Shown here piece by piece: positions 13,608-46,608 of a stretch of 64,000 nucleotides of DNA. The stretch lies in the NCBI RefSeq assembly GCF_013315695.1, contig NZ_CP054353.1. The stretch is one strand, 5' to 3'. The notes under the pieces were generated by a model, which was not told the origin of the DNA, did no database searches, and was given only the letters and a program-made list of their open reading frames with translations. This stretch comes from Escherichia coli (GTDB taxonomy: Bacteria; Pseudomonadota; Gammaproteobacteria; Enterobacterales; Enterobacteriaceae). The stretch's first letter is position 1. Each line of letters starts with the position of its first letter. The position numbers and the translations under genes were made by a program.

Positions 13608-13794
13608 CTCAATTAATACCCCTCGCCTTACGTCCGCACTTCAATTAATCGAGCAAGCAGCGGCTGTCCTGGTTGCTGTCAGTCTTTCGGCTGAAGAAAT
13701 GGACGCTGCTGATGTCGTGGATGCGATTAAAGCGTGCTCATCTTTGGTTAACGATGCCCGTGCCGAGCTGGTAATTCTTGGGGGTGAAAAATGA
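13600..13794 (+). CDS. small hypothetical protein
   Basis: ATG at 13600 overlaps the upstream stop (ATGAATAA); translation MNNSINTPRLTSALQLIEQAAAVL... Confidence 0.4.
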   Translation: MNNSINTPRLTSALQLIEQAAAVLVAVSLSAEEMDAADVVDAIKACSSLVNDARAELVILGGEK

Positions 13795-14054
13795 ATATCA
13801 ACTTAATTTATCGTCATCCGTGTGAGCTGGAAATTGAATCATTGCTGGGGCGTGAAGAGCCATATCCAGACTCATTCACTCCCGCAGATTGCGCGACTGA
13901 ACGGCTTACCAGAGCGCGCACAGGTCTGGTTCATGTGATGAATGAGATTGTTCCCTCGGTGGGAGGGGAACAGGCGACAGTAATCAATAGCTGGCTACAA
14001 AAAGTTACCTCCCTGATAGATATCGGTTTAATCGATGTGGAGAGTGCGAAATGA
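13791..14054 (+). CDS. small hypothetical protein
   Basis: 87-aa ORF with start overlapping the upstream stop. Confidence 0.4.
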   Translation: MNINLIYRHPCELEIESLLGREEPYPDSFTPADCATERLTRARTGLVHVMNEIVPSVGGEQATVINSWLQKVTSLIDIGLIDVESAK

Positions 14055-15219: not shown

Positions 15220-15583
15220 AAATGCAGAAATGGCGCTTAGCTCCGCAATCGGAGAGCAGGTGGCAAAGATTGCTGGTGCTGTGTGGATTCATAACCTTCA
15301 TTCTACTGGTGAAGAGAAAATGGCAATTCAGACGCCAGAGGGACGCACCATTACTACATCTCTGAAGCCGTCAGATGTTTGTGATCTGATTTGCGCATTC
15401 ATGTACCCAGCAATGAGGACTGTCCACGGCGATAAGTGGAAACTTGCGACAACCGCTGAATTTGATATGTGGCTAAACAATGATGGCATGCTGACTGATT
15501 ACGGAATAACCAAGTGGCAGATGCTGGTTAGCCATATCGCAAACGCTATAGACCACGTGGGGTACGGTGATGCGAAACATTGA
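15212..15583 (+). CDS. hypothetical protein
   Basis: 123-aa ORF overlapping both neighbours. Confidence 0.4.
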   Translation: MRENAEMALSSAIGEQVAKIAGAVWIHNLHSTGEEKMAIQTPEGRTITTSLKPSDVCDLICAFMYPAMRTVHGDKWKLATTAEFDMWLNNDGMLTDYGITKWQMLVSHIANAIDHVGYGDAKH

Positions 15584-18326
15584 TCTTATCCGTCAGGTTA
15601 TCAGTGCGTCTGAAAACAACTGGCCTCATGTGCTGGGCTGCCTGAACATAAATGTCCCTGACTCTCCGCGCCGTCATGCTCCCTGCCCTGCATGTGGGGG
15701 CAAAGATCGATTCCGGTTCGATGACAACGGGCGCGGTAGCTTCATCTGTAATCAGTGCGGCGCTGGTGATGGGCTGGATTTAATTAAACGCGTAAATAAC
15801 TGCGACACAACAGAGGCGGCGCTTCTTGCCGCTGATGTTCTGGGTATTGATTACCGGACAACGGAAACACCAGAAGCCACCAGCCAGAAACGGGAACAAC
15901 TGGAAACCGAGCGCCAGCGACGCGAACAGGAGCGCCTGAAAAGGGCAGAGAAGGACGAACAACAAAGACGGGATACGTTTTCCCGTCAGTTTGATGACAT
16001 GCGCAGAAAGGCTGTAAACGGCAAATCTGATTATCTGGTTGCGAAAGGGGTAGGTGATTTTACATTCCCCGTGTTGCCCGATGGATCTCTGTTGCTGGCG
16101 CTGGTGGATAAATCCGGCGCAGTCACAGCAGCACAGACTATTACATCACATGGTGAAAAAAGACTCCTGACAGGTTCAGCAAAGCGGGGGGCATATCACG
16201 CCATAAACGCGCCAGAAACAACACAGAGCATCTTAATCGCAGAAGGGCTGGCAACGGCATTATCTGCCCATTTAATTCGTCCAGAGGCGCTGACAGTGGC
16301 GGCGATTGATGCCGGGAACCTGTTATATGTCGCCCAGGTACTGCGGGATAAATTTCCTTCAGCACAAATCATCATTGCTGCGGATAACGACCACAGCGAA
16401 GGAAGACAAAACACGGGGAGAATAGCAGCAGAAAAAGCAGCTTTATCTGTTTCTGGATGGGTGGCATTACCCCCGACAGATCACAAAGCAGACTGGAATG
16501 ATTACCACCAAAAACACGGCATTAAATGCGCCACAGAAGCGTTCAATAAGTCAATGTACCAACCACAGGGTAATGGCGTGAAACATGAGCCACAGACCAT
16601 TGAGGGAAGCGATTTTAAGGTTATGGATACCGACCCACTGAAACCAAGAATAGAAAGCCGCGAGGATGGTATTTATTGGGTATCTCCGAGAGCTGACAGC
16701 CAGAGTGGAGAAATCATCAATAACGAAAGCTGGTTATGTTCTCCGTTAAGCGTTATCGGTACTGGCAGAGACGATAAAGACCAGTATCTCATTCTTCGCT
16801 GGCTGTCGTTTGGTTCTGAAACGCCGACAACCGCTGCCATTCCACTGGCTGATATTGGTGAACGTGAAGGATGGCGCACACTTAAAGCTGGTGGGGTAAA
16901 TGTCACGACCAAAAGCAGCCTCAGAGCAATACTGGCAGACTGGCTACAACGCAGTGGCTCTCGTGAATTGTGGCGTGTTGCTCATGCCACTGGCTGGCAA
17001 TGCGGAGCGTACATCATGCCTGATGGGGAAATCATCGGAACACCTGAAAATCCTGTGCTGTTCAGCGGGAGAAGCTCAGCCGCAGCCGGATATACCGTCT
17101 CAGGGAGCGCGAAAAGCTGGCGTGATAACGTGGCGCGTCTGGCCTTTGGTAACTATTCAATGATGACCGGGATCGGCGCAGCACTGGCAGCGCCATTGAT
17201 TGGGCTGGTGGGCGCTGACGGGTTCGGCATTCATTTCTATGAGCAGTCGAGCGCAGGTAAGACCACCACGGCAAACGTGGCGAGCAGCTTATACGGCAAC
17301 CCTGATTTACTGCGGCTGACGTGGTACGGAACCGCGCTGGGGCTGGCAAATGAGGCCGCCGCCCACAATGACGGACTAATGCCGCTTGATGAAGTTGGTC
17401 AGGGCGCTGATCCTGTCAGCGTTTCACAGTCTGCCTATGCGTTATTTAACGGTGTAGGGAAACTGCAAGGCGCTAAAGATGGTGGAAACCGGGATCTAAA
17501 ACGCTGGCGTACAGTGGCAATCAGCACCGGAGAAATGGATTTAGAAACATTTATCGCTACTTCCGGGCGAAAAACCAAAGCCGGGCAACTGGTGCGACTG
17601 CTGAATATTCCGTTGAGTAAAGCAGTACGCTTTCACGATTACCAGAACGGAAAACAGCACGCAGACGCACTGAAAGACGCTTACCAGCATCACCACGGCG
17701 CGTCCGGGCGTGAGTGGATTAAATGGCTGGCAGACCACCAGCAACAGGCTATTAAAACCGTTCGTGACTGCGAAAGCAGATGGAGAAGCCTGATCCCATC
17801 CGATTATGGTGAGCAGGTTCACCGTGTAGCCGCGCGATTTGCCATTCTGGAGGCCGCATTGTTGTTAGGCGAGGTTGTAACAGGCTGGGATGCTCAGACA
17901 TGCCGTGATGCGATACAGCACAGCTATAACGCATGGTTGCGCGAGTTCGGCACAGGTAACAAAGAGCATCAGCAGATTATTGAACAAACGGAGGCATTTC
18001 TTAATGCCTATGGGCTTAGCCGTTTTGCACCATTTCCATACAGCCCGGCAGATTTGCCCATCAAAGATTTAGCCGGATACCGTCAGCGTGGAGAACATGA
18101 CGAAAGCCCAATGATTTTCTACACATTCCCGGCCACATTTGAAAAGGAGATCGCATGTGGTTTCAACGCAAAACAGTTTGCTGAAGTGTTGAAAAAAGCC
18201 GGGATGCTAACCCCACCAAACAGCGGTCGTGGATACCAAAGAAAATCACCACGTATTCAGGGACGACAAATAAACGTTTATGTACTCAATTACCAGCCAG
18301 GAGATTATAACTCATCTGAAGAATGA
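15567..18326 (+). CDS. P4-alpha-like primase/helicase (zinc-binding primase domain + Toprim + NTPase)
   Basis: 919-aa ORF; N-terminal zinc motif CPACGGKDRFRFDDNGRGSFICNQCG; acidic Toprim-like stretch IIIAADNDHSEGRQNTG; nucleotide-binding-like motif later; followed by an iteron array. Confidence 0.8.
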   Translation: MMRNIDLIRQVISASENNWPHVLGCLNINVPDSPRRHAPCPACGGKDRFRFDDNGRGSFICNQCGAGDGLDLIKRVNNCDTTEAALLAADVLGIDYRTTETPEATSQKREQLETERQRREQERLKRAEKDEQQRRDTFSRQFDDMRRKAVNGKSDYLVAKGVGDFTFPVLPDGSLLLALVDKSGAVTAAQTITSHGEKRLLTGSAKRGAYHAINAPETTQSILIAEGLATALSAHLIRPEALTVAAIDAGNLLYVAQVLRDKFPSAQIIIAADNDHSEGRQNTGRIAAEKAALSVSGWVALPPTDHKADWNDYHQKHGIKCATEAFNKSMYQPQGNGVKHEPQTIEGSDFKVMDTDPLKPRIESREDGIYWVSPRADSQSGEIINNESWLCSPLSVIGTGRDDKDQYLILRWLSFGSETPTTAAIPLADIGEREGWRTLKAGGVNVTTKSSLRAILADWLQRSGSRELWRVAHATGWQCGAYIMPDGEIIGTPENPVLFSGRSSAAAGYTVSGSAKSWRDNVARLAFGNYSMMTGIGAALAAPLIGLVGADGFGIHFYEQSSAGKTTTANVASSLYGNPDLLRLTWYGTALGLANEAAAHNDGLMPLDEVGQGADPVSVSQSAYALFNGVGKLQGAKDGGNRDLKRWRTVAISTGEMDLETFIATSGRKTKAGQLVRLLNIPLSKAVRFHDYQNGKQHADALKDAYQHHHGASGREWIKWLADHQQQAIKTVRDCESRWRSLIPSDYGEQVHRVAARFAILEAALLLGEVVTGWDAQTCRDAIQHSYNAWLREFGTGNKEHQQIIEQTEAFLNAYGLSRFAPFPYSPADLPIKDLAGYRQRGEHDESPMIFYTFPATFEKEIACGFNAKQFAEVLKKAGMLTPPNSGRGYQRKSPRIQGRQINVYVLNYQPGDYNSSEE

Positions 18327-18351: not shown

Positions 18352-18452
18352 GTTGGTTCAGTTGGTTCAATTTGTAAAGAGTATTGTTTTATAAGGATTT
18401 TATTCTTTTTATTGAACCAACACTGAACCAACAACACGGTATTTTGAACCAA
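18352..18452 (+). repeat. Iteron array 1 (candidate replication origin/crr-like site)
   Basis: GTTGGTTCA x2 direct (18352-18369), AT-rich spacer, then TGAACCAAC x3 inverted (18413-18452). Confidence 0.6.
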
Positions 18453-18774
18453 CACAATGTGACTGAATTGATGCGCACAACACCTGGCTGGCATCAGAGA
18501 GTGTTTTACGAGACTTTCGTAAAATCCTGTGTACAAGGGCGTGACGTTTTTGAAAGTGAGCACTACGAAATTTTCGTAGTTCAGAAAACAGCCTCTGAGA
18601 AGTTGTTATGCCTGTTCAGCAAACCATCCGCATAGCTGATCGCGAATCAAATTACCAATGGAGCCAGAAGCAAGGGCAGAACTGAAAAGCGCCTGCCGTG
18701 AAGAGTAATGCGACACCATAAATATAGTTTTTAGAGTCCATAAAAAACCTGTCAAAACCTGACACACAGAACGA

Positions 18775-18806
18775 TGCCACCAGCTACTGAGCGGTGGCAT
18801 TTTTTT
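18775..18806 (+). terminator. Rho-independent terminator
   Basis: GC hairpin GCCACCAGCTACTGAGCGGTGGC followed by ATTTTTTTG. Confidence 0.6.
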
Positions 18807-18901
18807 GTGCTATTTGTTTCATATTTTGCAATTACGATGATGAATATTGCGATTTGTGAAACTATAATAACTGTTGTTTTATACAGTTCTAAGGGGGCGT
18901 T

Positions 18902-19063
18902 ATGGCTATTTCAGTAAAGCCGGTATTGATAAGTGAGAAGCAAATGGAAGCGATAAAGAAAATTCAGGAAGAGCAGCGTAAAAAATCAGGAATTGGAGTA
19001 GCGCCAACTCTGCATGAAATTGCACGAGGGTTAATAGATAAGGCGCTGGCAGGCTGTATGTGA
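18902..19063 (+). CDS. small hypothetical protein (53 aa), possible first gene of the downstream operon
   Basis: ATG at 18902, translation MAISVKPVLISEKQMEAIKKIQEEQRKK...; below the ORF-track size cutoff. Confidence 0.3.
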   Translation: MAISVKPVLISEKQMEAIKKIQEEQRKKSGIGVAPTLHEIARGLIDKALAGCM

Positions 19064-19079
19064 AAATGGATGGCATCGC

Positions 19080-19541
19080 ATGGAACTAAAATTTATTGAT
19101 AACCCTGTGCGATTACAGGCCTTTCTTAACGAGCCAGGCAATACCGAAAATATTGTTGAGCCGGGGCACACGTACTACATCAAGCCTGATGCGGTATATC
19201 TCGGCATCTACGAAGGATTAGTGCTGGCTGGCGTTCATGAAGTGCGTAACTTCTGGCATAGCGTTGTTGAATGCCATGCGGTGTACGACCCCGGATTCCG
19301 TGGTGAATATGCACTGCAAGGACATCGATTATTCTGCAAATGGCTTCTCGAAAACTCACCATTCCTTAACAGCATTACCATGGTTCCTGACACCACGAAA
19401 TACGGACGGGCAATTATCCGTTTGCTTGGCGCTACCCGTGTTGGTCATCTTGATGATGCTTATATCAGATGTGGTAAACCCGTCGGCGTAACGCTTTATC
19501 AGTTAACTCGGCAACAATATAAGGAATTCAGCGAATGTTAA
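19080..19541 (+). CDS. hypothetical protein, first gene of coupled operon
   Basis: 153-aa ORF; its stop overlaps the next start. Confidence 0.5.
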   Translation: MELKFIDNPVRLQAFLNEPGNTENIVEPGHTYYIKPDAVYLGIYEGLVLAGVHEVRNFWHSVVECHAVYDPGFRGEYALQGHRLFCKWLLENSPFLNSITMVPDTTKYGRAIIRLLGATRVGHLDDAYIRCGKPVGVTLYQLTRQQYKEFSEC

Positions 19542-20212
19542 TTACCCATATAGCTTATAAACATCTCAATCGTGCCGTATACGAAAAAGGCGGTGATGGT
19601 GGTGCCTCTAAAGCTCAGGCGAAGGCCCAGCAGCAGGCAATTGATTTGCAGCGCGAGCAGTGGAATACGGTGATGAATAATCTCAAGCCGTATGCAGAAG
19701 TCGGATTGCCTGCTTTACAACAACTACAAGGACTGATGACTCTGGAAGGGCAGAATAAAGCCGCGAATGATTTCTTTGGTTCTGGTTTATATAAAACACA
19801 GGCAGATCAGGCCCGTTATCAGAACCTTGTCTCAGCAGAAGCTACCGGGGGGCTTGGCTCAACAGCTACCAGTAACCAGTTATCTTCCATTGCGCCCATG
19901 CTTTATAACAATTGGCTCAGTGGGCAAATGCAAAATTATGGAAACCTGCTAAATGTCGGGATGAATGCGGCATCAGGGCAGGCAACAGCAGGGCAAAACT
20001 ACGCCAATAATACCGGACAACTCTTGCAGGGGCTTGGCGCTATTCGTGCAGGTCAGGCGCAGCAGCCATCCAGTCTTGCGCGTGGTATTGGTGGGGCGGC
20101 ATCAGGCGCTTTAGCGGGTGCGCAACTTGGTTCCGTTGTTCCGGGTATAGGTAATGTCGCCGGGGCTATTGGTGGTGGGCTTATTGGTCTTGTTGGGGGG
20201 CTTGGATTCTAA
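19535..20212 (+). CDS. hypothetical protein with Gly/Ala-rich hydrophobic C-terminus (possible podovirus ejection-protein-like)
   Basis: 225-aa ORF; C-terminal GGAASGALAGAQLGSVVPGIGNVAGAIGGGLIGLVGGLGF glycine-zipper-like segment; TAATG overlap with the next gene. Confidence 0.5.
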   Translation: MLITHIAYKHLNRAVYEKGGDGGASKAQAKAQQQAIDLQREQWNTVMNNLKPYAEVGLPALQQLQGLMTLEGQNKAANDFFGSGLYKTQADQARYQNLVSAEATGGLGSTATSNQLSSIAPMLYNNWLSGQMQNYGNLLNVGMNAASGQATAGQNYANNTGQLLQGLGAIRAGQAQQPSSLARGIGGAASGALAGAQLGSVVPGIGNVAGAIGGGLIGLVGGLGF

Positions 20213-21625
20213 TGGCGACATGGCAACTTGGCGGGCTGCCTAGCATGGCACCGCAAAATGATAATGCTCCTCGTTCTTCCGTTCCTCAGCCTGTGCAGTA
20301 TCAGCAGCAGCCAAACGTAGGTTTAATGGCGCTACAGGGGCTAAGAGGCGTTGCTGAGATTAATCAGCAGGCACGTCAACAACAGCGTAAAGCAGAGTTT
20401 CAGAAAGCATATGCCGGGGCTTTTGAGTCTGGAGACAGAAACAAAATGCGCAGTCTTATTTCTGAGTATCCAGAAGAATTTGAAAGCGTTCAGAAAGGGA
20501 TGGGCTTTATTGATGACGACCAGAGAAATTCTATTGGTCATCTTGCGACTAGTGCTCAAATCGCATCTTCGCTCGGAACTGGGGCATTTGGAAAATTCAT
20601 AGCAGATAACGAAGATGAAATGCGTCGTTTGGGAATTTCTCCTGAGTCTGTTGCCGAAATGCATGTTAATGATCCACAGGGATTCCAGCGGCTTGCTGGT
20701 AGTATGGCACTGTTTTCTCTCGGTCATGAGAAGTACTTCGATATCAAAGATCGAATGGAAGGTCGGGATATTGAGCGTGGCAAGTTGGCAGAGACGATCC
20801 GCAGCAATCAAGCCGGAGAAGCACTTCAGGCGAGAGGGCAGGATATTAGCCGAGCAAATGCGTTAACGTCAGCATATGCACCAACAGCCGCAATGCAGAA
20901 TTACAATCAATACGCGCAAATGTTAAAGGCGGATCCAGAGGGGGCTGCGGCATTTGCGGCAGCGGCTGGAATTAATACAAACGCCAAAAAATTAATGAGT
21001 GTTAGAGAAAACGATGATGGCACTGTCACAAAATACTACACAGACGGAAGTGAAGAGCAGGGAAAACTAAACCAGCCAATATCTGGAGATGGGTTTCGTC
21101 CAATAGCTTTGCCAACAGCCCAAAAGATCATGGAAAAGTCGCCAGAAGGGGCTAAAAAAGCTGCTGGATTTGCATACAGAGTTAGGGATGCTCTTGATTC
21201 AATAGATACACTGAAAGACCAGCTTAGCCCACAGCGAGTGGCGATCATTAATAATGCTTTGGGTAATGGGACGCTGGCTAACTTAACGCTCAGCCCAACA
21301 GAGCAGCAATACGTTGTTAATGCTAATGACGCAATAATGGCAATACTCCGTCAGGAAACAGGGGCATCTATCCTACCAGCTGAAATGTCCAAATATTATC
21401 AAATGTATTTCCCTCAGCCTGGTGATTCCACAAAAACCATTGATACCAAGCGTAGGAAGATGGAAAACCAGTTCAATTCGCTGAAAGCTGCTTCTGGTCG
21501 AGCTTATGATGCTTTGCGGGTTATTTCAGCAGTTGACAGAGGAACTTCTTCTTCGTCGCAGACATTGCCGCAATCTGAGCAGGTATCACAGCCAGCAGTA
21601 ATTTTTCTTCACTATGGGGTGATTA
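20212..21625 (+). pseudogene. coupled-operon gene 3, 3' end interrupted by IS1 (ancestral product ~474 aa)
   Basis: Open frame runs into IS1 at 21626; rejoining the split target duplication gives native end ...HYGVING-stop, overlapping the ATG of the 701-aa gene now at 45798. Confidence 0.6.
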
Positions 21626-34110: not shown

Positions 34111-34824
34111 CTATTCCTGTTTAAAGGCAGGAGTAATAGTGTCTTCACCTTCACTACTTGATTTTTCAGTGTTAACACGTTTTTTCATATTCGCCCCGAT
34201 GTTCTTAGATGGCTGTGTTTTGATAGCTACAGTGTTTACAGTACCATAAGAAACTAATCTTATTTGTTCAAAGCTAAGATCAAATACCAGGGATTCGCTT
34301 GCCTCTTCTGTGTATTCGATGCCTGTTAAAACAACGTTCTCAAAAGTTTTATTTTCTGTAACAAGAAGAAAAGGCTGTCTACTGTCCATAATCTGATTCA
34401 AGTAGTCTATAGCTAATGATCTTCTGTTCCCGTTCACCCCTGCACTCTTTAACAAGCCAGGATCGCTTTTAATCGGTGTTTCAGTGATACGCCCTTTAAG
34501 AGAGAACTTATTGTTTTTAATTTGAACGTGATCAGACACAGTAGCACCATTTTCTACGGGGTAGCTTGTGACATCTGCCGAACGTCTCACGTTCACATCG
34601 TCAACACTATCAAAGGCCAGTGCCATATAATTTTCATAAACGTCATTACCAGAAGATGCCAAGCCACTGGTAACAATAGCAAATCCGTTCTCTCCTTTTG
34701 TTTTATTAGCTTTGCTATTTTCGTTTTTTGTAGAATTTATATCTTGTTCTGCTTTGTAAACAGCCTGAACGTGTTGTTCTGGAGTATTTGCTGCACGTAT
34801 GGTTAAAATCCCGGCGGTCGCCAT
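34111..34824 (-). CDS. hypothetical protein (AT-rich accessory gene)
   Basis: 237-aa ORF, low GC, immediately downstream of the 326-aa ORF on the same strand. Confidence 0.5.
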   Translation of the reverse strand: MATAGILTIRAANTPEQHVQAVYKAEQDINSTKNENSKANKTKGENGFAIVTSGLASSGNDVYENYMALAFDSVDDVNVRRSADVTSYPVENGATVSDHVQIKNNKFSLKGRITETPIKSDPGLLKSAGVNGNRRSLAIDYLNQIMDSRQPFLLVTENKTFENVVLTGIEYTEEASESLVFDLSFEQIRLVSYGTVNTVAIKTQPSKNIGANMKKRVNTEKSSSEGEDTITPAFKQE

Positions 34825-34846
34825 AATAATAATTTTCCTTGTAATG

Positions 34847-35799
34847 TTATGGCGGGAATTCCCCGCCGTTGGATTGTCCTGATAAGCTGGTTAATGTTAA
34901 TGATTTCAAGAAGCTATCCCGACTTGCTCTCGCTGTAAAATCCACATAATCGCTCAATCGTCCGGTGTCTGATTCGATAGTTAGCGGCACTTCTGTTACC
35001 ACTTCAAATGTAGGATTCAGATTAAACACAGGAGATAAATTATAAGCTGGAGTTGTCATTGCAAGATTATTTAAAGCACCCTGTTTGAGATTGGTTATCG
35101 GTGCTTCATTGACTGACATTTTTACATCTGACACAGAAGAATTATCATCGAAAAGCAATCCCTTAATTGTGTTAAAGAGAGAATGACTATTATCAGGTGT
35201 AGTTGTTGCAGTGCCAGCGCCTTTATATTGATTAGGAACGAGATTAGAAAGATTCTGTTTCATCCCTTCATTGCTTAATGGCGGTGCATCACCCATATTT
35301 TTCTGAATAGCATCTGTCTTATCATCATTACGATTAAACCAGTTTACAATCTTCATAATAGCTTCAAAGAGACTTCCTGTAGCTTCTCCCAGCTTCGTAA
35401 AATACGGAGTGAGATTAGAAAGGTTTTTCATAAACTCTTCCGTTACTTTTGGATCGAGAGATTTCATAAAGCCGTCTACGAATGCTACTTGTCTTGCATC
35501 AGAAAGCTGTGAAAGCTGTCTGTTTAGTTCTCTGAATTTAACAATAGAGTCTTGCTGTGTTTCTGTTAGCCATTTTCCAGAGGCTTTTTGCTGATTAATA
35601 CTTTCTTGTACATCTTTAACGGAACGTTGCCAATATTTTGACGTAAGCATCAAATCATCGCCCAGGTCTTCTAAACGTTGTCCAATTTGGGAGTCTGAAA
35701 ACCCTTTTTTCATCATTCCATTAACAGCCTTAGAAATTAATCCAGCCGGATTATCAGCAAATTTTTTAAGGTCGCTTTTGTTAATAACACCGATGTTTA
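34847..35799 (-). pseudogene. hypothetical protein, 5' end truncated by IS2
   Basis: Open frame continues to the IS2 boundary at 35800; the annotated Met at 35827 lies inside IS2. Confidence 0.55.
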
Positions 35800-37130
35800 T
35801 AGACTGGCCCCCTGAATCTCCAGACAACCAGTATCACTTATTTAAGTGATAGTCTTAATACTAGTTTTTAGACTAGTCATTGGAGAGCAGATGATTGATG
35901 TCTTAGGACCGGAGAAACGCAGACGGCGTACCACACAGGAAAAGATCGCAATTGTTCAGCAGAGCTTTGAACCGGGGATGACGGTCTCCCTCGTTGCCCG
36001 GCAACATGGTGTAGCAGCCAGCCAGTTATTTCTCTGGCGTAAGCAATACCAGGAAGGAAGTCTTACTGCTGTCGCCGCCGGAGAACAGGTTGTTCCTGCC
36101 TCTGAACTTGCTGCCGCCATGAAGCAGATTAAAGAACTCCAGCGCCTGCTCGGCAAGAAAACGATGGAAAATGAACTCCTCAAAGAAGCCGTTGAATATG
36201 GACGGGCAAAAAAGTGGATAGCGCACGCGCCCTTATTGCCCGGGGATGGGGAGTAAGCTTAGTCAGCCGTTGTCTCCGGGTGTCGCGTGCGCAGTTGCAC
36301 GTCATTCTCAGACGAACCGATGACTGGATGGATGGCCGCCGCAGTCGTCACACTGATGATACGGATGTGCTTCTCCGTATACACCATGTTATCGGAGAGC
36401 TGCCCACGTATGGTTATCGTCGGGTATGGGCGCTGCTTCGCAGACAGGCAGAACTTGATGGTATGCCTGCGATCAATGCCAAACGTGTTTACCGGATCAT
36501 GCGCCAGAATGCGCTGTTGCTTGAGCGAAAACCTGCTGTACCGCCATCGAAACGGGCACATACAGGCAGAGTGGCCGTGAAAGAAAGCAATCAGCGATGG
36601 TGCTCTGACGGGTTCGAGTTCTGCTGTGATAACGGAGAGAGACTGCGTGTCACGTTCGCGCTGGACTGCAGTGATCGTGAGGCACTGCACTGGGCGGTCA
36701 CTACCGGCGGCTTCAACAGTGAAACAGTACAGGACGTCATGCTGGGAGCGGTGGAACGCCGCTTCGGCAACGATCTTCCGTCGTCTCCAGTGGAGTGGCT
36801 GACGGATAATGGTTCATGCTACCGGGCTAATGAAACACGCCAGTTCGCCCGGATGTTGGGACTTGAACCGAAGAACACGGCGGTGCGGAGTCCGGAGAGT
36901 AACGGAATAGCAGAGAGCTTCGTGAAAACGATAAAGCGTGACTACATCAGTATCATGCCCAAACCAGACGGGTTAACGGCAGCAAAGAACCTTGCAGAGG
37001 CGTTCGAGCATTATAACGAATGGCATCCGCATAGTGCGCTGGGTTATCGCTCGCCACGGGAATATCTGCGGCAGCGGGCTTGTAATGGGTTAAGTGATAA
37101 CAGATGTCTGGAAATATAGGGGCAAATCCA
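35800..37130 (+). mobile_element. insCD: IS2 (1331 bp, complete)
   Basis: Ends TAGACTGGCCCCCTGAATCTCC ... GGAAATATAGGGGCAAATCCA; InsC (35891..36256) and InsD (36214..37119) match canonical IS2; no 5-bp target duplication. Confidence 0.95.
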
Positions 37131-37493
37131 TTAACACATAAGCAATCAGTATGATTGGTTAGGTGATTACTCTTACTGCGCACAGCGCAATAGATTTCTT
37201 CGTGGGCGTTACCGCCAACGAAGTTACACGAAGAAAGTAACGCTTTGCTTTCGGTGTGAGCGGAACGGGCCAGCCACGAAGCCCGAAAGGTAGCGGAGTA
37301 AGGCTGCTTGCCAGAGAGTGAAGCTAACGCCGGAAGGCAAAAGATCATATATATAGATATAAAGAATATTATTATTATGATCTAATTAATAATCTAATAT
37401 AGTTTTATTAATAGTCTTATTGTAGTTCACAGTGACCTACCCCCTAGCTCACTATGACCTACCGTTACTACCAATCATCACATAGCACTCACT

Positions 37494-38277
37494 CTGTGTA
37501 ATGCCTTTCTATGTGTGTGCCATAATCCCCTATATTCCCTGTGTAAATCATAGAATATCCCTAACTTATTCCTGTGTAATTCCATACTAAAAATTCAATG
37601 AAAAGTAGCTTAAAAGTGCAATTCTTACTTTCTTCACTTTTACATCACTTTCGCAAATCCTTGTGTAGTGCGGCCTACAGAGCACCATCAGAAATTGTTG
37701 GCTAAAAATTGTTCTGCTTGTTTCTTAACGAGTTTTCTCGTTTGTGCAAATTTTAAAATTTATTTTGTTTTTACAGCCTTATTTCGTGTAATGCGTGGCA
37801 TAGCAAGCCCTTTTCTTGTGTTGTCAAGACATTTGGCAACGTTCAAACATCTGTTTAGAAATGCCAAATTGTTGATCTAACAAATAAACCTGTATAAACA
37901 GAACACCATTTAATCTATTCCCCTGTGTAATCCACTACATCACACAATAAAAACAAAAAAACCTTTAATTATGTTTCATAGCATACAAAAGTCAACAGAA
38001 GCCCTCTCGTGCTCCTACGTAAAAAATCCATCACTTTTCCCCTGATACATCAACTCAAGGCGTTCTATGTGTTCCTTAGTGCATATTACGTTTATTATGT
38101 TAAATTGATTTTGGCCTATATTTTGACCTGCACCCGCATAAACACTGGTTTCATCGCTTACACTCCTTGTGAGACGTGGTGCTGTTTCTAGCATCTGATC
38201 CGACATAAAACCGATCATTCTCGTGTTTAGTGAAAGTTTAGTGAGAGACATTACAGAAAGGCTTTCTGTGTAATGAT
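37494..38277 (+). repeat. Dispersed C(T/C)TGTGTAAT motif family in AT-rich non-coding DNA
   Basis: CTGTGTAAT-like copies at ~37494, 37539, 37572, 37783, 37924, 38269; nearby direct repeat (G/A)TGACCTACC at ~37430-37470. Confidence 0.5.
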
Positions 38278-38424
38278 TTAATAGGTAAAAACGATGTTGA
38301 TTACGCAAGAAAATTCCTTGCTGATATTTGGGGATTCTGGATTTTCCAGATCGGGGGGCGCTGAAAATCGCGTTAAGCACCTCTCGCAATCTAGCCATAA
38401 GGGAAGGGATATAGGTATTTAGAT

Positions 38425-38590
38425 GTATTTATAGCTATTTATGGCTATTTATTTTTTATTTGCCTTTATTTAAAAATAACCTTATAAATCAATAAGATAC
38501 ACAACTATCTGTTTATATTTTAATCAATTAAATCAAGTTTAATACCCTTAAATCACCTGAAAATACCCTTAAATACCCCAATAATTAATT
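38425..38590 (+). repeat. Iteron-like direct repeats
   Basis: TATTTATAGCTATTTATGGCTATTTATT (38425-38452) and ATACCCTTAAAT twice (38541-38584); no ORF over 60 aa in this stretch. Confidence 0.5.
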
Positions 38591-39723
38591 TTAAGGTTTT
38601 CCGTGTTCTCTTCTGCATTATGAAAATGCAAAATAAGGCACAAAACAAGCGCACAGACGCATTAAACACACATCACCTATACATCCCTATACCAAGCAAT
38701 GAAAATAGCGTTAGAATGCGTCCTGTTGCGTTCTGGAGATTTTCAGAAATCCTCTCTAAGCCATTTCAACTCATTAAGGAGTTTTCTTTCTTCGTTCTCT
38801 CTCTGTTTACGCTCTAGCCAGGCTTTTCCTTCTGGCGTAGACAGGAACTTACGAGCGTGAATCTTGCGGTTATTACGTTTGATAGCTGCAATGTTTTTCA
38901 TCGTGTGCCTCTGTATTCATATGAAAATTAACAAGTTACATACTACACAGGGAGACTACGCATAAAACACAATACAAGTAAAGATACATTTTCAAGACAA
39001 TAGGAGCCATAAAGCGCCTTTGATGGGCTACCCCAAAAAATAAGCGCCGTAGGCGTATCCACTAAAAGGGCTTTTTCACAAAAGCTATGAAGTCTTAGCA
39101 GTTCTTCTCTTATCAGGCACCCGTTGTACTCCGGTGGACGAAACCGTGCTAGAGCTTGATTCTTTCCCGATCAAGTTAGGTTTTGAAGAGGTGGGCTTTG
39201 ATCCACTATTGCACTTAAAACTCTTCCCATCATTTAGCCTGTTTATCCTCTGCAACGTCTCACGACGTGTAGCATCATTGGACACCGCGCCAGGTGTGGA
39301 ACATCTTGCTAAGAGTTTTGGTAGAAGGTTTAGAGACGGTGGCACGTCTTCCAGCTTCAAAGGAACTTGTTACGAGGTTGAGCCTGGGAACTACTCGCCC
39401 ATACGTGTTACACTACCAAAGCCCATAACAACGTATAGGCGTTTGTAAGTGATAACAGAAGATACAATTTCTTAGAGAAGTTAAGCTAAGTTATTGATTT
39501 TCTTGATTGTGCGATAATAGGAACAATACACATAGGCGATAAGCTTTGTTTTTGTTGCCTTTTTTATTGTTCATTTTTTATAGATACCCCCAAAAGTACC
39601 CCCATATCTTTTTCCGCCCCTGAAATTTGGTTGTTATTCATACAGCATATCAGGCGGTAACGCTCTCCCTTTAACCCACTTATTGTATGATAGTGCTATC
39701 CCACAATAAGGAATCAGCCAGCC

Positions 39724-40083
39724 ATGAGAATGACCAGCCGCAAAAAAGAGATACTTAGCTACTTTGAACCGGATAACCTCGAATGGGTGACTGGTGAGAT
39801 TGGTGCGCCGCCGTTCGATGTGTCGGGTGTGGCCTACCTGCTTCATGGCATGGTGTCGTTCGATAAGCGTCACCAGCTCGAATCAACCCGGCGCACACTG
39901 GAAAGCATGGTTGCTGGTGGACTGCTTGAGCGGGTGACAGTGTATGAATCGCGCCAGATACGGCGCGGCGGTGATACTAACGCAACGGTCGTGCGCTACG
40001 GTTTACCCGGTCAGTGCGCTGTTATGCGCGATACTGGCGGCGCTGACAACGCAATATCAGGTGAATACATGCGGGTCAGTTAA
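39724..40083 (+). CDS. hypothetical protein
   Basis: 119-aa ORF with normal GC content. Confidence 0.4.
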   Translation: MRMTSRKKEILSYFEPDNLEWVTGEIGAPPFDVSGVAYLLHGMVSFDKRHQLESTRRTLESMVAGGLLERVTVYESRQIRRGGDTNATVVRYGLPGQCAVMRDTGGADNAISGEYMRVS

Positions 40084-40618
40084 TAGCCTGCAATCTGTCG
40101 TTGATGCGGCTCAGGTCGTAAACCCGGCGTTCAATATCCAGCATCAGGAAATTGTGGATCTCGGCCTGCTCAGGATTATCAGACTCTCTGGCCTGTAATA
40201 GCAATTCATTGTAACCATGCAAGCCGCCTGAGTTTTCCGCCGGGGTGGTGCCTTTCCCACGCAGGCAGCTAATGGGCTGATTACTCGTATCGTGTGTTTG
40301 CTTCTCCAGCACAATGACGCAATCCCACCAGTCGCCAAAGTCATACGTGTAAACCAGCTTGTCACCCTCATTCTGGAGCGCCGCCCATAGTGGCGTGATT
40401 GCCGCGTTACCCATGCTTTCATCCTCACCCCATACGCGATACTCGCTACCTGGATCACCTTTACGCCCTTTCTCGAACATATACAGGTGTTCGTCATTCC
40501 AGCCAAAAGCTAACTGGATCACGGCATGAAGTTTACTAAAGGGGATTTGCTCTGGAACCAGCACACGCCGCCATATAGGTGGTTTGCTGTCTCGGATGGT
40601 TATCTTTAGCTGGTACAT
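40076..40618 (-). CDS. pRiA4b ORF-3-like family protein
   Basis: 180-aa ORF MYQLKITIRDSKPPIWRRVLVP...; N-terminal motif recalled as typical of the pRiA4b ORF-3-like (PF07929) family. Confidence 0.5.
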   Translation of the reverse strand: MYQLKITIRDSKPPIWRRVLVPEQIPFSKLHAVIQLAFGWNDEHLYMFEKGRKGDPGSEYRVWGEDESMGNAAITPLWAALQNEGDKLVYTYDFGDWWDCVIVLEKQTHDTSNQPISCLRGKGTTPAENSGGLHGYNELLLQARESDNPEQAEIHNFLMLDIERRVYDLSRINDRLQAIN

Positions 40619-40738: not shown

Positions 40739-40924
40739 CTACCTGCGCGGCGCTGGCTTCTTCCACTGATAGGCAGGTGCTCGCATCATTTCGCGGAACC
40801 TGTCGCGCCGGGCTATATCGGCATTAACTGATCGTTCTATCTCCCGTTGATCTGCCTGTGTAAGCTGGTGGCCTCCGTGCTCAAGTTTGGCGATGGTCAA
40901 TAAGGCTATTTCGCGTGGTGTCAT
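40739..40924 (-). CDS. small hypothetical protein
   Basis: 61-aa ORF. Confidence 0.3.
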   Translation of the reverse strand: MTPREIALLTIAKLEHGGHQLTQADQREIERSVNADIARRDRFREMMRAPAYQWKKPAPRR

Positions 40925-41221: not shown

Positions 41222-41503
41222 CTACCTTTGCCTCTTGCCGCCATTTAACCGGAAGGCGTTACCGTTCGGTTGCGCTATCCCCATGCGGTGTTGCGTTTCG
41301 GTAACAGCTTTATGCAGGTCGCCAAATTCCTCAACCTTCACGGGCGGGCGCTTCACGTTCTCCAGACACGTTTCACGGCGGCGCTTTATCCATTCCCGAT
41401 CATCGTCCTCGGTGCATAACAGCATGACTTCCATCCATCGTGCGGCAGCTCTCCGGTATAGCCCTTTTGACTCCAGCTCTTCAGCTTTCCTGTCCCTTAT
41501 CAT
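41222..41503 (-). CDS. PerC-family transcriptional activator
   Basis: 93-aa ORF MIRDRKAEELESKGLYRRAAARWMEVMLLC..., resembles PerC/Pch proteins of prophage islands. Confidence 0.6.
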   Translation of the reverse strand: MIRDRKAEELESKGLYRRAAARWMEVMLLCTEDDDREWIKRRRETCLENVKRPPVKVEEFGDLHKAVTETQHRMGIAQPNGNAFRLNGGKRQR

Positions 41504-41539: not shown

Positions 41540-41678
41540 GTTGGTTCAGTTGGTTCAGTTGGTTCAGTTGGTTCAGTTGGTTCAATTTGTAAAGATTGTT
41601 GTTTTTATTGTGTTTTTTCTGAAATATTGAACCAACATCAACTCATTTTGAACCAACACAGCCCAGCTCTGAACCAAC
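41540..41678 (+). repeat. Iteron array 2 (paralog of array 1)
   Basis: GTTGGTTCA x5 tandem (41540-41584), spacer TTCAATTTGTAAAGATTGTTGTTTTTATTG, then TGAACCAAC x3; the spacer aligns with array 1. Confidence 0.65.
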
Positions 41679-41780: not shown

Positions 41781-42236
41781 ATGGTCTTTGCAATGAGCAA
41801 ATCTAATCTGGTCGCGTTCCGCATCCCATCTGAATTGCAGGATGAGTTTAATCGGTCTGTTCTCGCTTCTGGAGGAGATAAAACCTCCTGGCTTGTTGAT
41901 GCGATTCGCATGAAGCTGGGGCAGCCGGAAAAGTCTATTGATTCACGAATGCTTGGGCTGGTGGAGCGCATGGAAAAAGCCGCTGCGTCGCTTATTGCCG
42001 GAAAGCCGAACATCCCACCAAAACCATATAACGAAACGGCAGTTATAAAGATCATTGCCGATACCATCCAACAGGGATTTGATAATGGGCGTGTGATAGC
42101 TGAACGGATCAATGAAGCAGGCTATCAAACAAAAGCTGGTAAAGCGTGGGATAAAGATATTTACAGCGCGTGGAAGCGTCAGGGAAGCAATGCTGAAAAG
42201 CTAAAAGCAGTGATTGATTGTAAGGTCAGCGTATAA
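41781..42236 (+). CDS. putative ribbon-helix-helix DNA-binding protein adjacent to the iteron array
   Basis: 151-aa ORF; N-terminal SNLVAFRIPSELQDEFNRSVLASGGDKTSWLVDAIRMKL fits an RHH (Arc/MetJ/CopG-like) pattern. Confidence 0.45.
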   Translation: MVFAMSKSNLVAFRIPSELQDEFNRSVLASGGDKTSWLVDAIRMKLGQPEKSIDSRMLGLVERMEKAAASLIAGKPNIPPKPYNETAVIKIIADTIQQGFDNGRVIAERINEAGYQTKAGKAWDKDIYSAWKRQGSNAEKLKAVIDCKVSV

Positions 42237-42315
42237 ACATGAGTGCCCATTGGAAAGTTGCTTGGGCCAATACCTTTATACACCAGCAGGTAGTGACGAT
42301 AGGTGAGGATCAGAT

Positions 42316-42537
42316 ATGAAAGGCAGAACGCCACACATTGAACATCAAGCCAACCACTTCCCTGATGTTCGCAATGAGATGATTGCCATTCGCGGTGATA
42401 TGCACGGATTGGAGCGTCGAATTATTGATAAGATTGATGAAAATAGAGATAAGGCCAGTGAAAATCAAAAGTGGATCATCGGCCTGTTGATTTTATCAAT
42501 TCTTATCCCGCTACTTATCGCATTGGTCACAAAATGA
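42316..42537 (+). CDS. small tail-anchored membrane protein
   Basis: 73-aa ORF with C-terminal hydrophobic helix WIIGLLILSILIPLLIALV. Confidence 0.35.
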   Translation: MKGRTPHIEHQANHFPDVRNEMIAIRGDMHGLERRIIDKIDENRDKASENQKWIIGLLILSILIPLLIALVTK

Positions 42538-43058: not shown

Positions 43059-43673
43059 GTGAGCAGAAAAGATACTAAAGAATTGCTAACTATCTGCATG
43101 GTGTACTTTTCAATTTATTTTTGTGCATACATGATAGTCCCAGATGAGTTTGAACATGGCAGTATTATTTATTCCATAACATTCTATTTTTTAGAGCTAA
43201 CACCAATTTTGGCTATCCTTTTGGGAATACATATTTATTTTTCCTTAAAAAAAGAATCGACTAATTGGGAGAAGGTATGGAGAGACAGAGGATTTCTAAC
43301 ATCACCTAAAGATGATGCATATGAGAGTGATTTTTCTGACTTTATAACAAACTACTACTCCAGCGAACAATTCAAAAATAGACTGTCTGATGTTTGGGAA
43401 ACAGCAATGTATTCCATAGGGATTATATTATTGATACTTACTGGTATTGCTCAATATGTTTTTAACATTGACTTATCATTAAATCCTGAAAATTTAATAT
43501 CGCCATTGATTTTTGGTGAGATATTGATCTTCTCATTCGGAATTTTCTTGAGTGTTGTTCTCTGCTCATTATGCAAGCTACTGACTAACAGGTATCCGGG
43601 TGAAGCAAGGAGAGCAAGAAAGGCAAATCCATATTATCTTTTATTTCCTAATGGAGACAGCAGAGATATCTAA
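43059..43673 (+). CDS. AT-rich multi-pass membrane protein (candidate exclusion/accessory moron)
   Basis: 204-aa ORF with about four hydrophobic helices, strongly A/T-biased codons, GTG start. Confidence 0.5.
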   Translation: MSRKDTKELLTICMVYFSIYFCAYMIVPDEFEHGSIIYSITFYFLELTPILAILLGIHIYFSLKKESTNWEKVWRDRGFLTSPKDDAYESDFSDFITNYYSSEQFKNRLSDVWETAMYSIGIILLILTGIAQYVFNIDLSLNPENLISPLIFGEILIFSFGIFLSVVLCSLCKLLTNRYPGEARRARKANPYYLLFPNGDSRDI

Positions 43674-43692: not shown

Positions 43693-45798
43693 TTATTGAG
43701 CTTCTTTTTGTGATGCCTGTGCGACTCTGGTGAGCGATTGTGTGACCGTACTGATCGCTCTGTCATATGCTGTGCTACCTTTTGGCGTATTTGCCAGACG
43801 TAACAAGGCATTTCGTATAACAGGGCTTTCGTATGCCTTCGCTGCTCCGCCTACGGCACCAGCAGCAGGAACAACAAACGCAGCCGTTTTTAGCATCCCC
43901 GCTAATACTGCTGCGTTTATGATGCCACCACCAACTAACAATCCATAAAGCTGCTGACCATTTAAGTTTTGAACGTTCGCTTTTGCCGCGTGTCTTGTAT
44001 CGTTGAGGTATTTAATAACGCCGTCCAGTTCCTTTCCATGTACGCCTTTAAAGAAAGTTGCTGATTGCTTCCTGTTCCGGTGTAACGCATTAATAAACTT
44101 CTCAACACTGATATTTCCAGACGGATCAGTCGCCTTATCTACAGCATTCTGAACTATGGCTGCTCGTGCGTTTTGCCTACCATTGTCATCCAGAAGCCTG
44201 TAAAGCTGAGAACGTTCTGATGGGCTTTGGCTAAAAACGAGTTTTGTTACATCCTCAGGCGTGGCCTTACCGCTGGCTATTGCCTTTTGAACGCGCGTTC
44301 TTCCCATCATGTCATTGAATTTAGACCATGACCGATCAACCCTTGCCATATTAATGGCTTCGTCTGCTCCAAGATTTTTGGCTACGGCTTTTTTCATATC
44401 CGCCGTATATGCCTTGTAGATAATATCGCTGGCTTTCTGGAGCGTATCTTTATCAACAGTGTCAGATGACGCCATAAATCGCTTTCGAAGATCGGTTCTG
44501 TTTTCCCTCGCCAGACGCAGGTCATTTGGTCCGCTGGTGATATCGTCTTTAAATTGCTGCAAGACTTTTACCGCGGCTCTATCCTGAGATTTGCCCGGGC
44601 GGCTTAACACGGCAATCTGATTGTCGATAGCTTTTACCGTGTTTGAGAGATCGACAGGGGTATCCCCCATAGCGTCAATTATGCGGTTATATCGCTTTCC
44701 TGCTGCCTCAATGAATTTTTGTTGCCCTTTAGTCGCAGATTCATAAAGCTGTTTATCAGAAATGCCACCCAGACCATCGCTAAATGTTCTGACTAAATTT
44801 TCTCGTGCTTGTTGTTGATTCAGCCGATTCTTACCGGTTCCAAAAAAAGGAACTCTTTCGCCTAATGTCTGAGCCTGACTCTGCATAAAGGTTTTATCTT
44901 TCAGCATGTCACTGGTCATTAACGGCAGATTTCTTTCCGATGCAAAGTTGACAGCAGCCTTTGCTTCAGGCGACATATCACCACGAACAGCCCTCGAAAC
45001 CGCACTCGCTGTATTTTCCAGCCCCTTACCAATACCACCAATGCCAGCAGAAATTACCGTTTGTAACGGATCAATATCTTCTCCACCAGCAAGGCTGGTG
45101 GCTCCCTGTAGTGCTAAATCTGTAGCTGCTGATTTTCCTATGGCACCAAGCACCGTTCCAGCCCTGCCCGCTGGTGTAAACGCCAGCGCATTAGCCAGAA
45201 ACGATGCCACGTCTTGCGGCGATAAACCCGGCTTGTTCAGAGCATAATCACCGGATGGCAGGGAAACGATAGTGTTACCCTTCTCATCCTGCCTTAATTT
45301 CGCTCCCATGCTCTGAAGAATCTTTTCCTGAGATGCGTCAGAGCCGAAAAGTTGAGACCATCGAGCTTTTAGAGCACCCATGCTGAGTGAGGTTAACTCT
45401 GGGGCAAGGTCGACATTTTGCAGTCTCTCCATCTCTGGAGTCATTCGGCTTTCGCCTGTTATAGCATCGCGCATCGCAGCCCCAAGACTGGCTCCCTGTT
45501 CTGCTGAACGCTCAAGCCCCTCTCTTTGCTGAGTAGCTAACTTTGCATACCCTGACGCAAGAGAATTATCAGATGATGTATGTTGAATATTTTGAGTTGC
45601 TGATTGGGATCGGTCTATTTCATTCGTTGATGGTAGTGGATAGGCAGCATAAAAAGCCTGCTTAGCCTGCGCTACACTTTCTCCGGCTTGCGGGGCCACG
45701 ACTTCATTGAAGTATTGCTCCTGAGCCTGCGCTTTTTGTTCTGGTGCTAACGCCTGATACTGTGGAGAGGCGATAACATCTTTCCATGCTTTAGCCAT
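43693..45798 (-). CDS. large alpha-helical protein, fourth gene of the split coupled operon (possible ejection/internal virion-like)
   Basis: 701-aa ORF; ATG 9 bp from the IS1 copy 3 boundary; the flanking 9 bp is the reverse complement of the duplication at IS1 copy 1; Gly/Ala-rich hydrophobic segment near the C-terminus. Confidence 0.6.
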   Translation of the reverse strand: MAKAWKDVIASPQYQALAPEQKAQAQEQYFNEVVAPQAGESVAQAKQAFYAAYPLPSTNEIDRSQSATQNIQHTSSDNSLASGYAKLATQQREGLERSAEQGASLGAAMRDAITGESRMTPEMERLQNVDLAPELTSLSMGALKARWSQLFGSDASQEKILQSMGAKLRQDEKGNTIVSLPSGDYALNKPGLSPQDVASFLANALAFTPAGRAGTVLGAIGKSAATDLALQGATSLAGGEDIDPLQTVISAGIGGIGKGLENTASAVSRAVRGDMSPEAKAAVNFASERNLPLMTSDMLKDKTFMQSQAQTLGERVPFFGTGKNRLNQQQARENLVRTFSDGLGGISDKQLYESATKGQQKFIEAAGKRYNRIIDAMGDTPVDLSNTVKAIDNQIAVLSRPGKSQDRAAVKVLQQFKDDITSGPNDLRLARENRTDLRKRFMASSDTVDKDTLQKASDIIYKAYTADMKKAVAKNLGADEAINMARVDRSWSKFNDMMGRTRVQKAIASGKATPEDVTKLVFSQSPSERSQLYRLLDDNGRQNARAAIVQNAVDKATDPSGNISVEKFINALHRNRKQSATFFKGVHGKELDGVIKYLNDTRHAAKANVQNLNGQQLYGLLVGGGIINAAVLAGMLKTAAFVVPAAGAVGGAAKAYESPVIRNALLRLANTPKGSTAYDRAISTVTQSLTRVAQASQKEAQ

Positions 45799-45807
45799 TA
45801 ATCACCC

Positions 45808-46575: not shown

Positions 46576-46608
46576 CGTTTATTCATAATAAATCTCCTGA
46601 AAGTTTAG

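Follow-up and report, generated by a model that had tools for sequence, protein, structure and literature searches.

Why a mobile island without capsid genes should carry an operon resembling the DNA-ejection module of a podovirus is the question raised by positions 18902–21625 of a 64,000-nucleotide stretch of Escherichia coli DNA (contig NZ_CP054353.1; hereafter the window), to which the reverse complement of the chromosome of E. coli MSB1_4I (NZ_LR898874.1) is 100% identical. Known phage satellites commandeer capsid size, the specificity of packaging or entire capsids, and capsid-forming phage-inducible chromosomal islands (cf-PICIs) and similar satellites encode part of the virion proteins, the rest being supplied by the helper. 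To our knowledge, no satellite has been described as supplying its own DNA-ejection proteins, and our literature search found none reported with ejection or injection proteins. Judged by gene content and nucleotide identity, the island in the window is a phage-inducible chromosomal island (PICI), a variant of EcCIMP1 integrated at thrW, and represents a damaged member of a family published in 2025. What is new here is the reading of its cargo as a full ejection cassette with an exclusion-type neighbour, the mosaic exchange of this cassette with P22-like phages and an independent parallel in Vibrio. For the window itself the message is modest, namely a broken copy from a known family. Reading the cargo as a full gp14–gp7–gp20–gp16 set turns the unexplained packaging candidates of the EcCIMP1 work into a testable hypothesis, which bears on how an abundant PICI family deals with podovirus helpers and SieA-type exclusion.

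The ejection operon and its displaced genes

The three coupled open reading frames (ORFs) described in the initial annotation are present, with a gp14 stop/gp7 start overlap (ATGTTAA) and a gp7 stop/gp20 start overlap (TAATG), and the primase gene, iterons and terminator said to precede them were all located upstream. Coordinate 18902 is the ATG of orf53, a fourth ORF ahead of the gp14, gp7 and gp20 homologues. A gene for gp16, treated as lacking in that annotation, is intact at 43693–45798, where an inversion mediated by the insertion sequence IS1 has moved it. The genes of the module are as follows.

18902–19063, plus strand: orf53, conserved head gene of the operon, 53 aa (ORF list)
19080–19541, plus strand: gp14 homologue (DUF2824; annotated 'head assembly/morphogenesis'), 153 aa; PHROG 651, E 1e-66
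19535–20212, plus strand: gp7 homologue (ejection protein), 225 aa; Pfam PF25688 P22_gp7, 2.4e-72; PHROG 598, 2e-69
20212–21625, plus strand: gp20 homologue (ejection protein); Pfam PF16928 Inj_translocase, 3.3e-58; PHROG 917, 5e-110
43693–45798, minus strand: gp16 homologue (ejection protein), 701 aa, intact, severed from the operon; PHROG 770 'DNA transfer protein', E 4e-159
43059–43673, plus strand (opposite to gp16, as sieA in P22): SieA-like membrane protein, 204 aa; PHROG 7745, E 4e-4

The proposed likeness to P22 gp14, gp7 and gp20 held up when the profile check was run: the PHROG and Pfam matches, together with pairwise amino acid identities, make the resemblance true homology. The gp14 homologue shares 84% identity with gp14 of the P22-like phage vB_EcoP_Kapi1 (Kapi1) and 23% with P22 gp14, the gp7 homologue 56–57% with both P22 gp7 and Kapi1 gp7, and the gp20 homologue 34–38% over its N-terminal domain; the gp16 homologue is 30% identical to P22 gp16 (BLASTP E 2e-52). 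The best matches of the gp16 and gp20 homologues among sequenced phages reach 67% and 53% amino acid identity, respectively, and gp16 of a complete P22-like prophage (argW, E. coli GN05476) is 94% identical to that of the window. All four P22-type families, gp14, gp7, gp20 and gp16, are present in the sequence. Neither Pfam nor NCBIfam matched the SieA-like protein or orf53. The Pfam scan also missed gp16 (the gp16 family PF26808 appears in precomputed annotations, and the Pfam library scanned here gave no match to it), and NCBIfam returned no hit for the ejection proteins.

The 225-aa gp7 homologue ends, as first noted from the sequence, in a glycine-rich, hydrophobic C-terminal tail (...GIGGAASGALAGAQLGSVVPGIGNVAGAIGGGLIGLVGGLGF); by simple hydropathy, neither it nor the gp20 homologue has a signal peptide or transmembrane segment. 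The orf53 protein is identical in the genomes MP1, ECONIH1, JA0266 and NRZ14408 and has no PHROG, Pfam or NCBIfam match. Its AlphaFold model (pLDDT 78) consists of an extended N-terminus followed by two helices and has no significant PDB match, so that a ribbon–helix–helix assignment would be a guess.

The far end of the operon is cut by IS1. Coordinate 21625 is the exact IS1 junction, and the last two gp20 codons and the stop now come from IS1 (...VING-stop has become ...VIR-stop); the ORF in its present form spans 20212–21630 and encodes 472 aa, and the native gene encodes 473 aa. The elements on either side of the displaced segment are listed here.

21626–22393, minus strand: IS1 copy a, at the gp20/gp16 junction; target duplication GGGTGATTA, 9 bp, at 21617–21625
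45799–46575, plus strand: second copy of GGGTGATTA (45799–45807, reverse complement) and IS1 copy c (45808–46575, inverted relative to copy a)

A second 9-bp duplication pair, GAATAAACG, lies at 22394–22402 and, as the reverse complement, at 46576–46584. The two duplication pairs at the flanks show that IS1 inserted twice, independently, and that copies a and c then recombined, inverting 22394–45807: the first IS1 is between gp20 and gp16, the second is in the chromosome, and the inversion measures ~23.4 kb. Because of it, gp16, the sieA-like gene, the PerC-like gene and the right attachment site (attR) now lie ~24 kb away from the operon in reverse orientation. When the inversion is undone, gp20 regains 473 aa and the end ...HYGVING-stop, the same length as in the intact ECONIH1 copy; the gp16 ATG overlaps the restored gp20 stop (ATGGCTAA); and the 14–7–20–16 synteny with coupled translation is regained, in the order gp14–gp7–gp20–gp16–sieA (reverse) that is exactly that of P22. 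On its sequence, the module in the window is broken twice, as gp16 is parted from the operon promoter and the attachment (att) sites are in inverted orientation. With attL and attR so placed, the integrase could invert the segment, not excise it, and this copy is predicted to be unable to excise as a unit.

The modules of P22-like podoviruses (P22, Sf6 and Kapi1) have the same gene order, orientation, stop/start overlaps and protein families, and the products of 14/7/20/16/sieA measure 151/229/471/609/164 aa in P22 against 153/225/473/701/204 aa in the window. Unlike that of P22, the window module sits in a 19-kb island without coat, portal, terminase, tail or lysis genes, differs at 23–56% identity and is headed by an extra 53-aa ORF.

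We regard the 204-aa protein as a distant SieA homologue and a plausible exclusion factor. Aligned with P22 SieA by hhalign (probability 94.8%, E 5e-8), it matches over a span that includes the RYPGEA motif; its motif NRYPGEARRARK lines up with P22 GRYPGEANGFNK, although the match to the FxRYPxEAxxFNK-like motif is partial. In SieA proteins this conserved motif is C-terminal and cytoplasmic (Leavitt et al.). The protein has four hydrophobic stretches, and a Citrobacter homologue, 50% identical, occupies the sieA slot (between gene 16 and arc/ant/tailspike) of a complete P22-like prophage. It thereby has the features of the SieA class, being a multi-pass membrane protein with the motif, divergent just after gene 16, with the reservation that the motif is partial and the PHROG match weak. 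When the SieA-escape positions of P22 gp16 (G532 and P546) are aligned to satellite gp16, the glycine is kept, and around P546 the alignment is too weak to be read.

A family of EcCIMP1-type satellites

EcCIMP1 of E. coli MP1 is a 19,963-bp PICI (Pick, Stadel & Raivio, ISME J 2025, PMC11773190) that excises and circularizes only upon induction of Kapi1, requires its own alpA and its own int, is transduced by Kapi1 at low frequency and adds, by an unexplained mechanism, to the superinfection immunity of Kapi1 lysogens (PMC11773190). The paper labels the genes of this module 'DNA transfer/DUF2824' and proposes a packaging role, and the words 'ejection' and 'injection' are absent from it (PMC11773190). 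The island in the window shares its thrW site (between proA and yagU) and att core, 98% nucleotide identity over the left 11.5 kb (int to the start of gp20) and the right 2.2 kb (iterons, PerC, attR), the accessions for alpA, orf53, PerC and pRiA4b-ORF3, and the placement of the gp14–gp7–gp20–gp16 operon. It differs in that the middle 5.4 kb, from inside gp20 to the second iteron cluster, is replaced, and in that the window copy is IS1-disrupted and inverted. EcCIMP1 has a gp20 of 439 aa and a gp16 of 906 aa (annotated with a lytic transglycosylase domain), compared with 473 and 701 aa in the window, and a 232-aa lipoprotein in the slot where the window has the SieA-like membrane protein.

Once restored, the island measures 19,069 bp between TCCTATTATC cores at 8843 and 39513; this core occurs twice in the window, against 0.05 expected.

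8843–8852, plus strand: attL core TCCTATTATC in the 3' end of tRNA-Thr (thrW, 8784–8859); same core as the experimental one of EcCIMP1
39513–39522, minus strand: attR core TCCTATTATC, inverted relative to attL

Its content is that of a Gram-negative PICI, with an integrase and direct att repeats (10–20 kb), an AlpA gene downstream of int, its own primase and iterons, and no structural genes. By PHROG, the island ORFs include no capsid, portal, terminase, tail or lysis gene; the first four had already been reported as missing. The protein WP_000035054.1, the AlpA-type regulator of the window, is also the MP1 gene product encoded downstream of the integrase, where the EcCIMP1 paper puts the master regulator alpA. 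From the left, the restored order reads int, alpA, hypothetical, antA, DUF4222, ash, six small ORFs, primase and iterons, and continues on the right with orf53, gp14, gp7, gp20, gp16, the sieA-like gene, two ORFs, iterons, the PerC-like gene, two ORFs and pRiA4b-ORF3.

With P4-like satellites the island has in common an integrase, an AlpA-type regulator, a large primase, two iteron clusters and tRNA integration, but its primase is of the TOPRIM+DUF927 kind and the proven helper of the EcCIMP1 family is a podovirus, not a P2-like myovirus. No island ORF has a PHROG match to Sid, Psu or Delta; a P4-like affiliation is unsupported, and the element is a PICI of the EcCIMP1 type, the helper of which is a P22-like podovirus (PMC11773190). 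It likewise departs from cf-PICIs, which bring capsid or packaging parts, in that its own contribution to the virion would be the internal ejection proteins only.

The cassette recurs as satellite cargo. Among 5,426 complete E. coli genomes, 235 have the primase 3' end, the intergenic region and orf53, gp14 and gp7 in one uninterrupted stretch at a coverage of at least 80% (the partial-coverage classes, ~120 and ~96, are extrapolated from evenly spaced rows). The window-type block from gp14 to gp16 is present in 179 of the 5,426 genomes and the sieA-like gene in 102, every copy of the latter at 99% nucleotide identity or more; as a rough estimate, several percent of E. coli genomes harbour the family. 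Satellites with the module occupy two att sites, differ in their integrases and replicases and never have structural genes. The copies inspected one by one, of which the intact ones lie between core genes at yicC/dinD and at thrW, are these.

ECONIH1, yicC/dinD: different integrase, DUF5906 replicase, same cassette, intact 473-aa gp20
PKF4, yicC/dinD: only gp20 and gp16
DLL557, yicC/dinD: only gp20 and gp16; Kapi1-type alleles (75% and 41% aa identity)
JA0266 and MP1, thrW: gp20 of 439 aa, gp16 of 906 aa
LWY24, yicC/dinD: no ejection genes
25-9519, thrW: decayed copy
NRZ14408, separate record NZ_LT599831.1, 'phage_14408_2', 19,226 bp: circularly permuted satellite

The LWY24 satellite, which lacks ejection genes, indicates that the cargo slot is not always filled by an ejection cassette. 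In it, the conserved first gene (57 aa) is followed by a 223-aa protein and then PerC (L012 11399–12243). Both ends of the NRZ14408 record lie in gp16, the PerC-to-int junction is internal and an Abi-family gene stands between gp16 and PerC, which suggests an excised or replicating form that was assembled separately.

A species-level scan with a gp7 alignment retrieved 33 loci, 28 of them in P22-like prophages (coat, portal and gp10 upstream), two in EcCIMP1-type satellites, from Escherichia sp. and Buttiauxella izardii, and two in Vibrio islands. In the satellite loci L018 and L038, tblastn gave no match to P22 or Kapi1 coat, portal, gp4, gp10, gp26 or TerL. The B. izardii satellite (L038 1–15000) encodes int, alpA, antA, ash, a primase (49% aa identity), PerC, gp14, gp7, gp20 and gp16; its ejection genes are of the MP1 allele type (66–67% aa identity) and PerC lies ahead of them. 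The Vibrio islands, in V. furnissii and V. proteolyticus (L048 4914–17000 and L049 5309–17100), lie beside tRNA-Ser and tRNA-Leu and run int, hypothetical, alpA, Ant, two hypotheticals, gp7, gp20, gp16, small ORFs and a replication initiator, with no ORF of structural-gene size. They look like a distinct satellite lineage that carries ejection proteins of its own, and our literature searches found no description of islands of this type. The suggestion that the module is satellite cargo is borne out by this survey, in which the operon lies beside a satellite primase in E. coli, never with structural genes, and is found in Buttiauxella and Vibrio as well.

Between satellite copies, the ratio of non-synonymous to synonymous substitution rates (dN/dS) is 0.09–0.11 for gp14, 0.10–0.12 for gp7, 0.17–0.18 for gp16 and 0.28–0.47 for gp20, with 80 synonymous against 51 non-synonymous differences in gp16; these ratios indicate that all four proteins are under purifying selection. 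Near-identical satellites carry at least four gp20/gp16 pairs (473/701, 488/701, 439/906 and 447/705 aa), and gp20 and gp16 stay together in every copy that has either, including those without gp14 and gp7. Comparison of the alleles shows that gp20/gp16 are swapped mosaically and exchanged with P22-like phages. The gp20 and gp16 of EcCIMP1 share no more than 26% identity with their counterparts in Kapi1, the proven helper; at the DNA level, satellite and Kapi1 resemble each other in gp14 and the start of gp7 only (81% over ~590 bp), and a search of the satellite for sequence resembling the helper's pac or terS likewise returned gp14/gp7 as its sole similarity to Kapi1.

The slot directly after gp16 holds an envelope protein that differs by variant (window, DLL557, PKF4, MP1).

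L009 11749–12447: MP1/EcCIMP1 slot, 232-aa lipoprotein with lipobox LLAGC
L013 15044–15439: DLL557 slot, 131-aa protein with multiple transmembrane segments
L002 19711–20151: PKF4 slot, 146-aa secreted protein

Of these, the MP1 lipoprotein is a candidate factor behind the so far unexplained superinfection immunity reported with EcCIMP1.

What the cassette may do for the satellite

We consider it narrowly probable, given these genes, that the satellite equips helper-built particles with ejection proteins of its own. Upon induction of a P22-like helper, AlpA would turn the satellite on; the promoter scan found no sigma-70 consensus promoter upstream of the operon, which fits dependence on an activator, and the operon is probably AlpA-switched during helper growth. 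It would yield gp14 as an assembly factor together with ejection proteins that form a self-consistent set, and these would enter helper procapsids, replacing or joining the helper's own, so that particles with satellite DNA would build the trans-envelope conduit from satellite proteins. The satellite would thus be freed from dependence on the gp20/gp16 allele of its current helper, and its ejection proteins could also shift sensitivity to SieA-type exclusion in recipients, while the adjacent envelope gene (SieA-like here) would separately shield the host from P22-like superinfection. In P22, gp16 and gp20 need to be matched, SieA escape mutations are located in gp16 and gp20, and full foreign ejection-protein sets assemble and function (PMC10883804).

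More tentatively, as a generalization that we hold somewhat short of probable, we postulate that satellites of P22-like podoviruses carry a swappable ejection cassette (always gp20 and gp16, usually gp14 and gp7) beside a variable envelope or exclusion gene. Such a cassette would re-arm helper-built particles and let the satellite decide envelope crossing and the outcome of SieA-type exclusion, and would have arisen at least twice, in the EcCIMP1-like PICIs of Enterobacteriaceae and in the int–alpA–ant islands of Vibrio.

Several points weigh against a satellite that equips its own particles. Kapi1 transduces EcCIMP1 very inefficiently, at ~5e3 particles/ml, and the Kapi1 titre is unaltered (PMC11773190), from which it follows that the effect on particles in this pair is not dramatic. 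LWY24-type members without ejection genes mean that the module is not essential to the family and, since the helper already provides ejection proteins, any selective advantage is argued for rather than observed. The putative SieA, moreover, is assigned by remote homology, at ~29% identity.

The exclusion of incoming phage, offered in the initial annotation as a role for the module, would have ejection proteins made in the uninfected cell block P22-like phages, for example at the inner-membrane conduit site, and would make the cassette a defence module. EcCIMP1 does boost the superinfection immunity of Kapi1 lysogens, and the cassette does adjoin envelope or exclusion-type genes (SieA-like here, the MP1 lipoprotein, the DLL557 protein), but these neighbours explain exclusion more simply, no constitutive-type promoter was found ahead of the operon and gp14, annotated as a head assembly factor, would serve no purpose. 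In addition, once released from the virion, gp7 and gp20 do their work in the outer membrane and periplasm (PMC10883804), a site that cytoplasm-made copies would miss because simple hydropathy gives them no signal peptide or transmembrane segment. We find such a role for the ejection proteins themselves unlikely and unsupported, and regard the separate SieA-like neighbour as the plausible factor. Less likely still is the proposal of the EcCIMP1 authors that the post-primase genes steer helper packaging or capsid assembly to satellite DNA. These genes do occupy the position of packaging modules in other PICIs, the DUF2824/gp14 family is annotated 'head morphogenesis' and transfer is specific although the satellite has no recognizable TerS; yet gp7, gp20 and gp16 have no known packaging role and, in established P22 genetics, particles without gp7, gp20 and gp16 still package DNA. 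The confinement of nucleotide similarity with Kapi1 to gp14 and the start of gp7 further means that the satellite holds no copy of helper terS/pac-region DNA.

That same similarity, the only one between satellite and helper DNA, could instead point to a cassette that rescues defective P22-like prophages lacking ejection genes or provides homology for packaged helper cointegrates, and a low transduction frequency would suit rare recombination. We give this little credence in view of the purifying selection on all four proteins, the retention of gp20/gp16 alleles without nucleotide similarity to the helper and the existence of PKF4-type satellites without gp14 and gp7. Least credible of all, and very improbable, is a dead P22-like prophage remnant lying beside the satellite by chance. 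In its favour, the genes run in precisely the P22 order and the IS1 elements mark a locus decaying in the window strain. Against it, hundreds of genomes share the junction, which is found at two att sites and also in a second genus; the reading frames remain intact, with dN/dS below 1 and no structural pseudogenes alongside; and EcCIMP1, mobile by experiment, has the module inside its sequenced attL–attR boundaries. The lone survivor of a degraded prophage first envisaged is this same reading and is set aside with it, the junction with the satellite primase recurring in 235 genomes.

Backbone genes and the neighbouring island

The remaining features of the satellite are listed in window coordinates.

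9025–10239, plus strand: satellite tyrosine integrase; PHROG 1, E 1e-77; RefSeq annotation
10891–11094, plus strand: AlpA-type regulator; PHROG 66/2790; WP_000035054.1
11094–15583, plus strand: early/regulatory genes (hypothetical, antA/antB antirepressor, DUF4222, ash, six small ORFs); ~98% nucleotide identity to EcCIMP1
15567–18326, plus strand: primase/replicase, TOPRIM + DUF927, 919 aa; PHROG 1139, E 2e-178; RefSeq name
18352–18453, unstranded: iteron cluster 1, five GAACCAAC (two minus, three plus)
18783–18808, plus strand: terminator-like hairpin (18783–18798) with T-run, upstream of the operon
39724–40083, plus strand in the window: right arm, 119-aa ORF
40076–40618, minus strand: right arm, pRiA4b-ORF3 family protein
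40739–40924, minus strand: right arm, 61-aa ORF
41222–41503, minus strand: right arm, PerC/ANR-like regulator
41540–41678, unstranded: iteron cluster 2, eight GAACCAAC
41781–42537, plus strand: two small ORFs (151 and 73 aa) in the variable slot between the sieA-like gene and PerC; weak PHROG matches only

The iteron GAACCAAC occurs 13 times in the window against 2.2 expected. Its two mixed-orientation clusters bracket the cargo of the restored island, in which the variable cassette is swapped from inside gp20 to cluster 2; a pair of iteron clusters is reminiscent of the P4 ori/crr arrangement. The right-arm satellite proteins are also present in EcCIMP1/MP1. Against the NCBIfam model for ANR negative regulators (cut-off 32), the PerC-like protein reaches 31.1 bits, a near-cut-off score that fits the idea of the EcCIMP1 authors of an ANR-type repressor rather than a PerC activator. 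An 87-aa satellite ORF at 13791–14054 is named 'nicotinic acetylcholine receptor subunit beta' in RefSeq (MSB1_4I, NRZ14408), an evident annotation artefact.

A further IS1, copy b, lies at 25129–25896; copy a matches copy b at 768/768 positions, and copy c is one base off. The inverted segment holds ykgR/M/O, ecpC–E, ykgJ and yagU; ecpC is cut short by copy b, and there is no ecpB, ecpA or ecpR. Between yagU and the satellite attR there is a second island (32420–39500) with an integrase fragment, a full integrase (32695–34029), a 'phage baseplate protein' gene, a truncated ORF and IS2. It has a 14-bp repeat of the thrW 3' end at 32588 (minus strand), and MP1 has a MarR/Vat island in the equivalent position.

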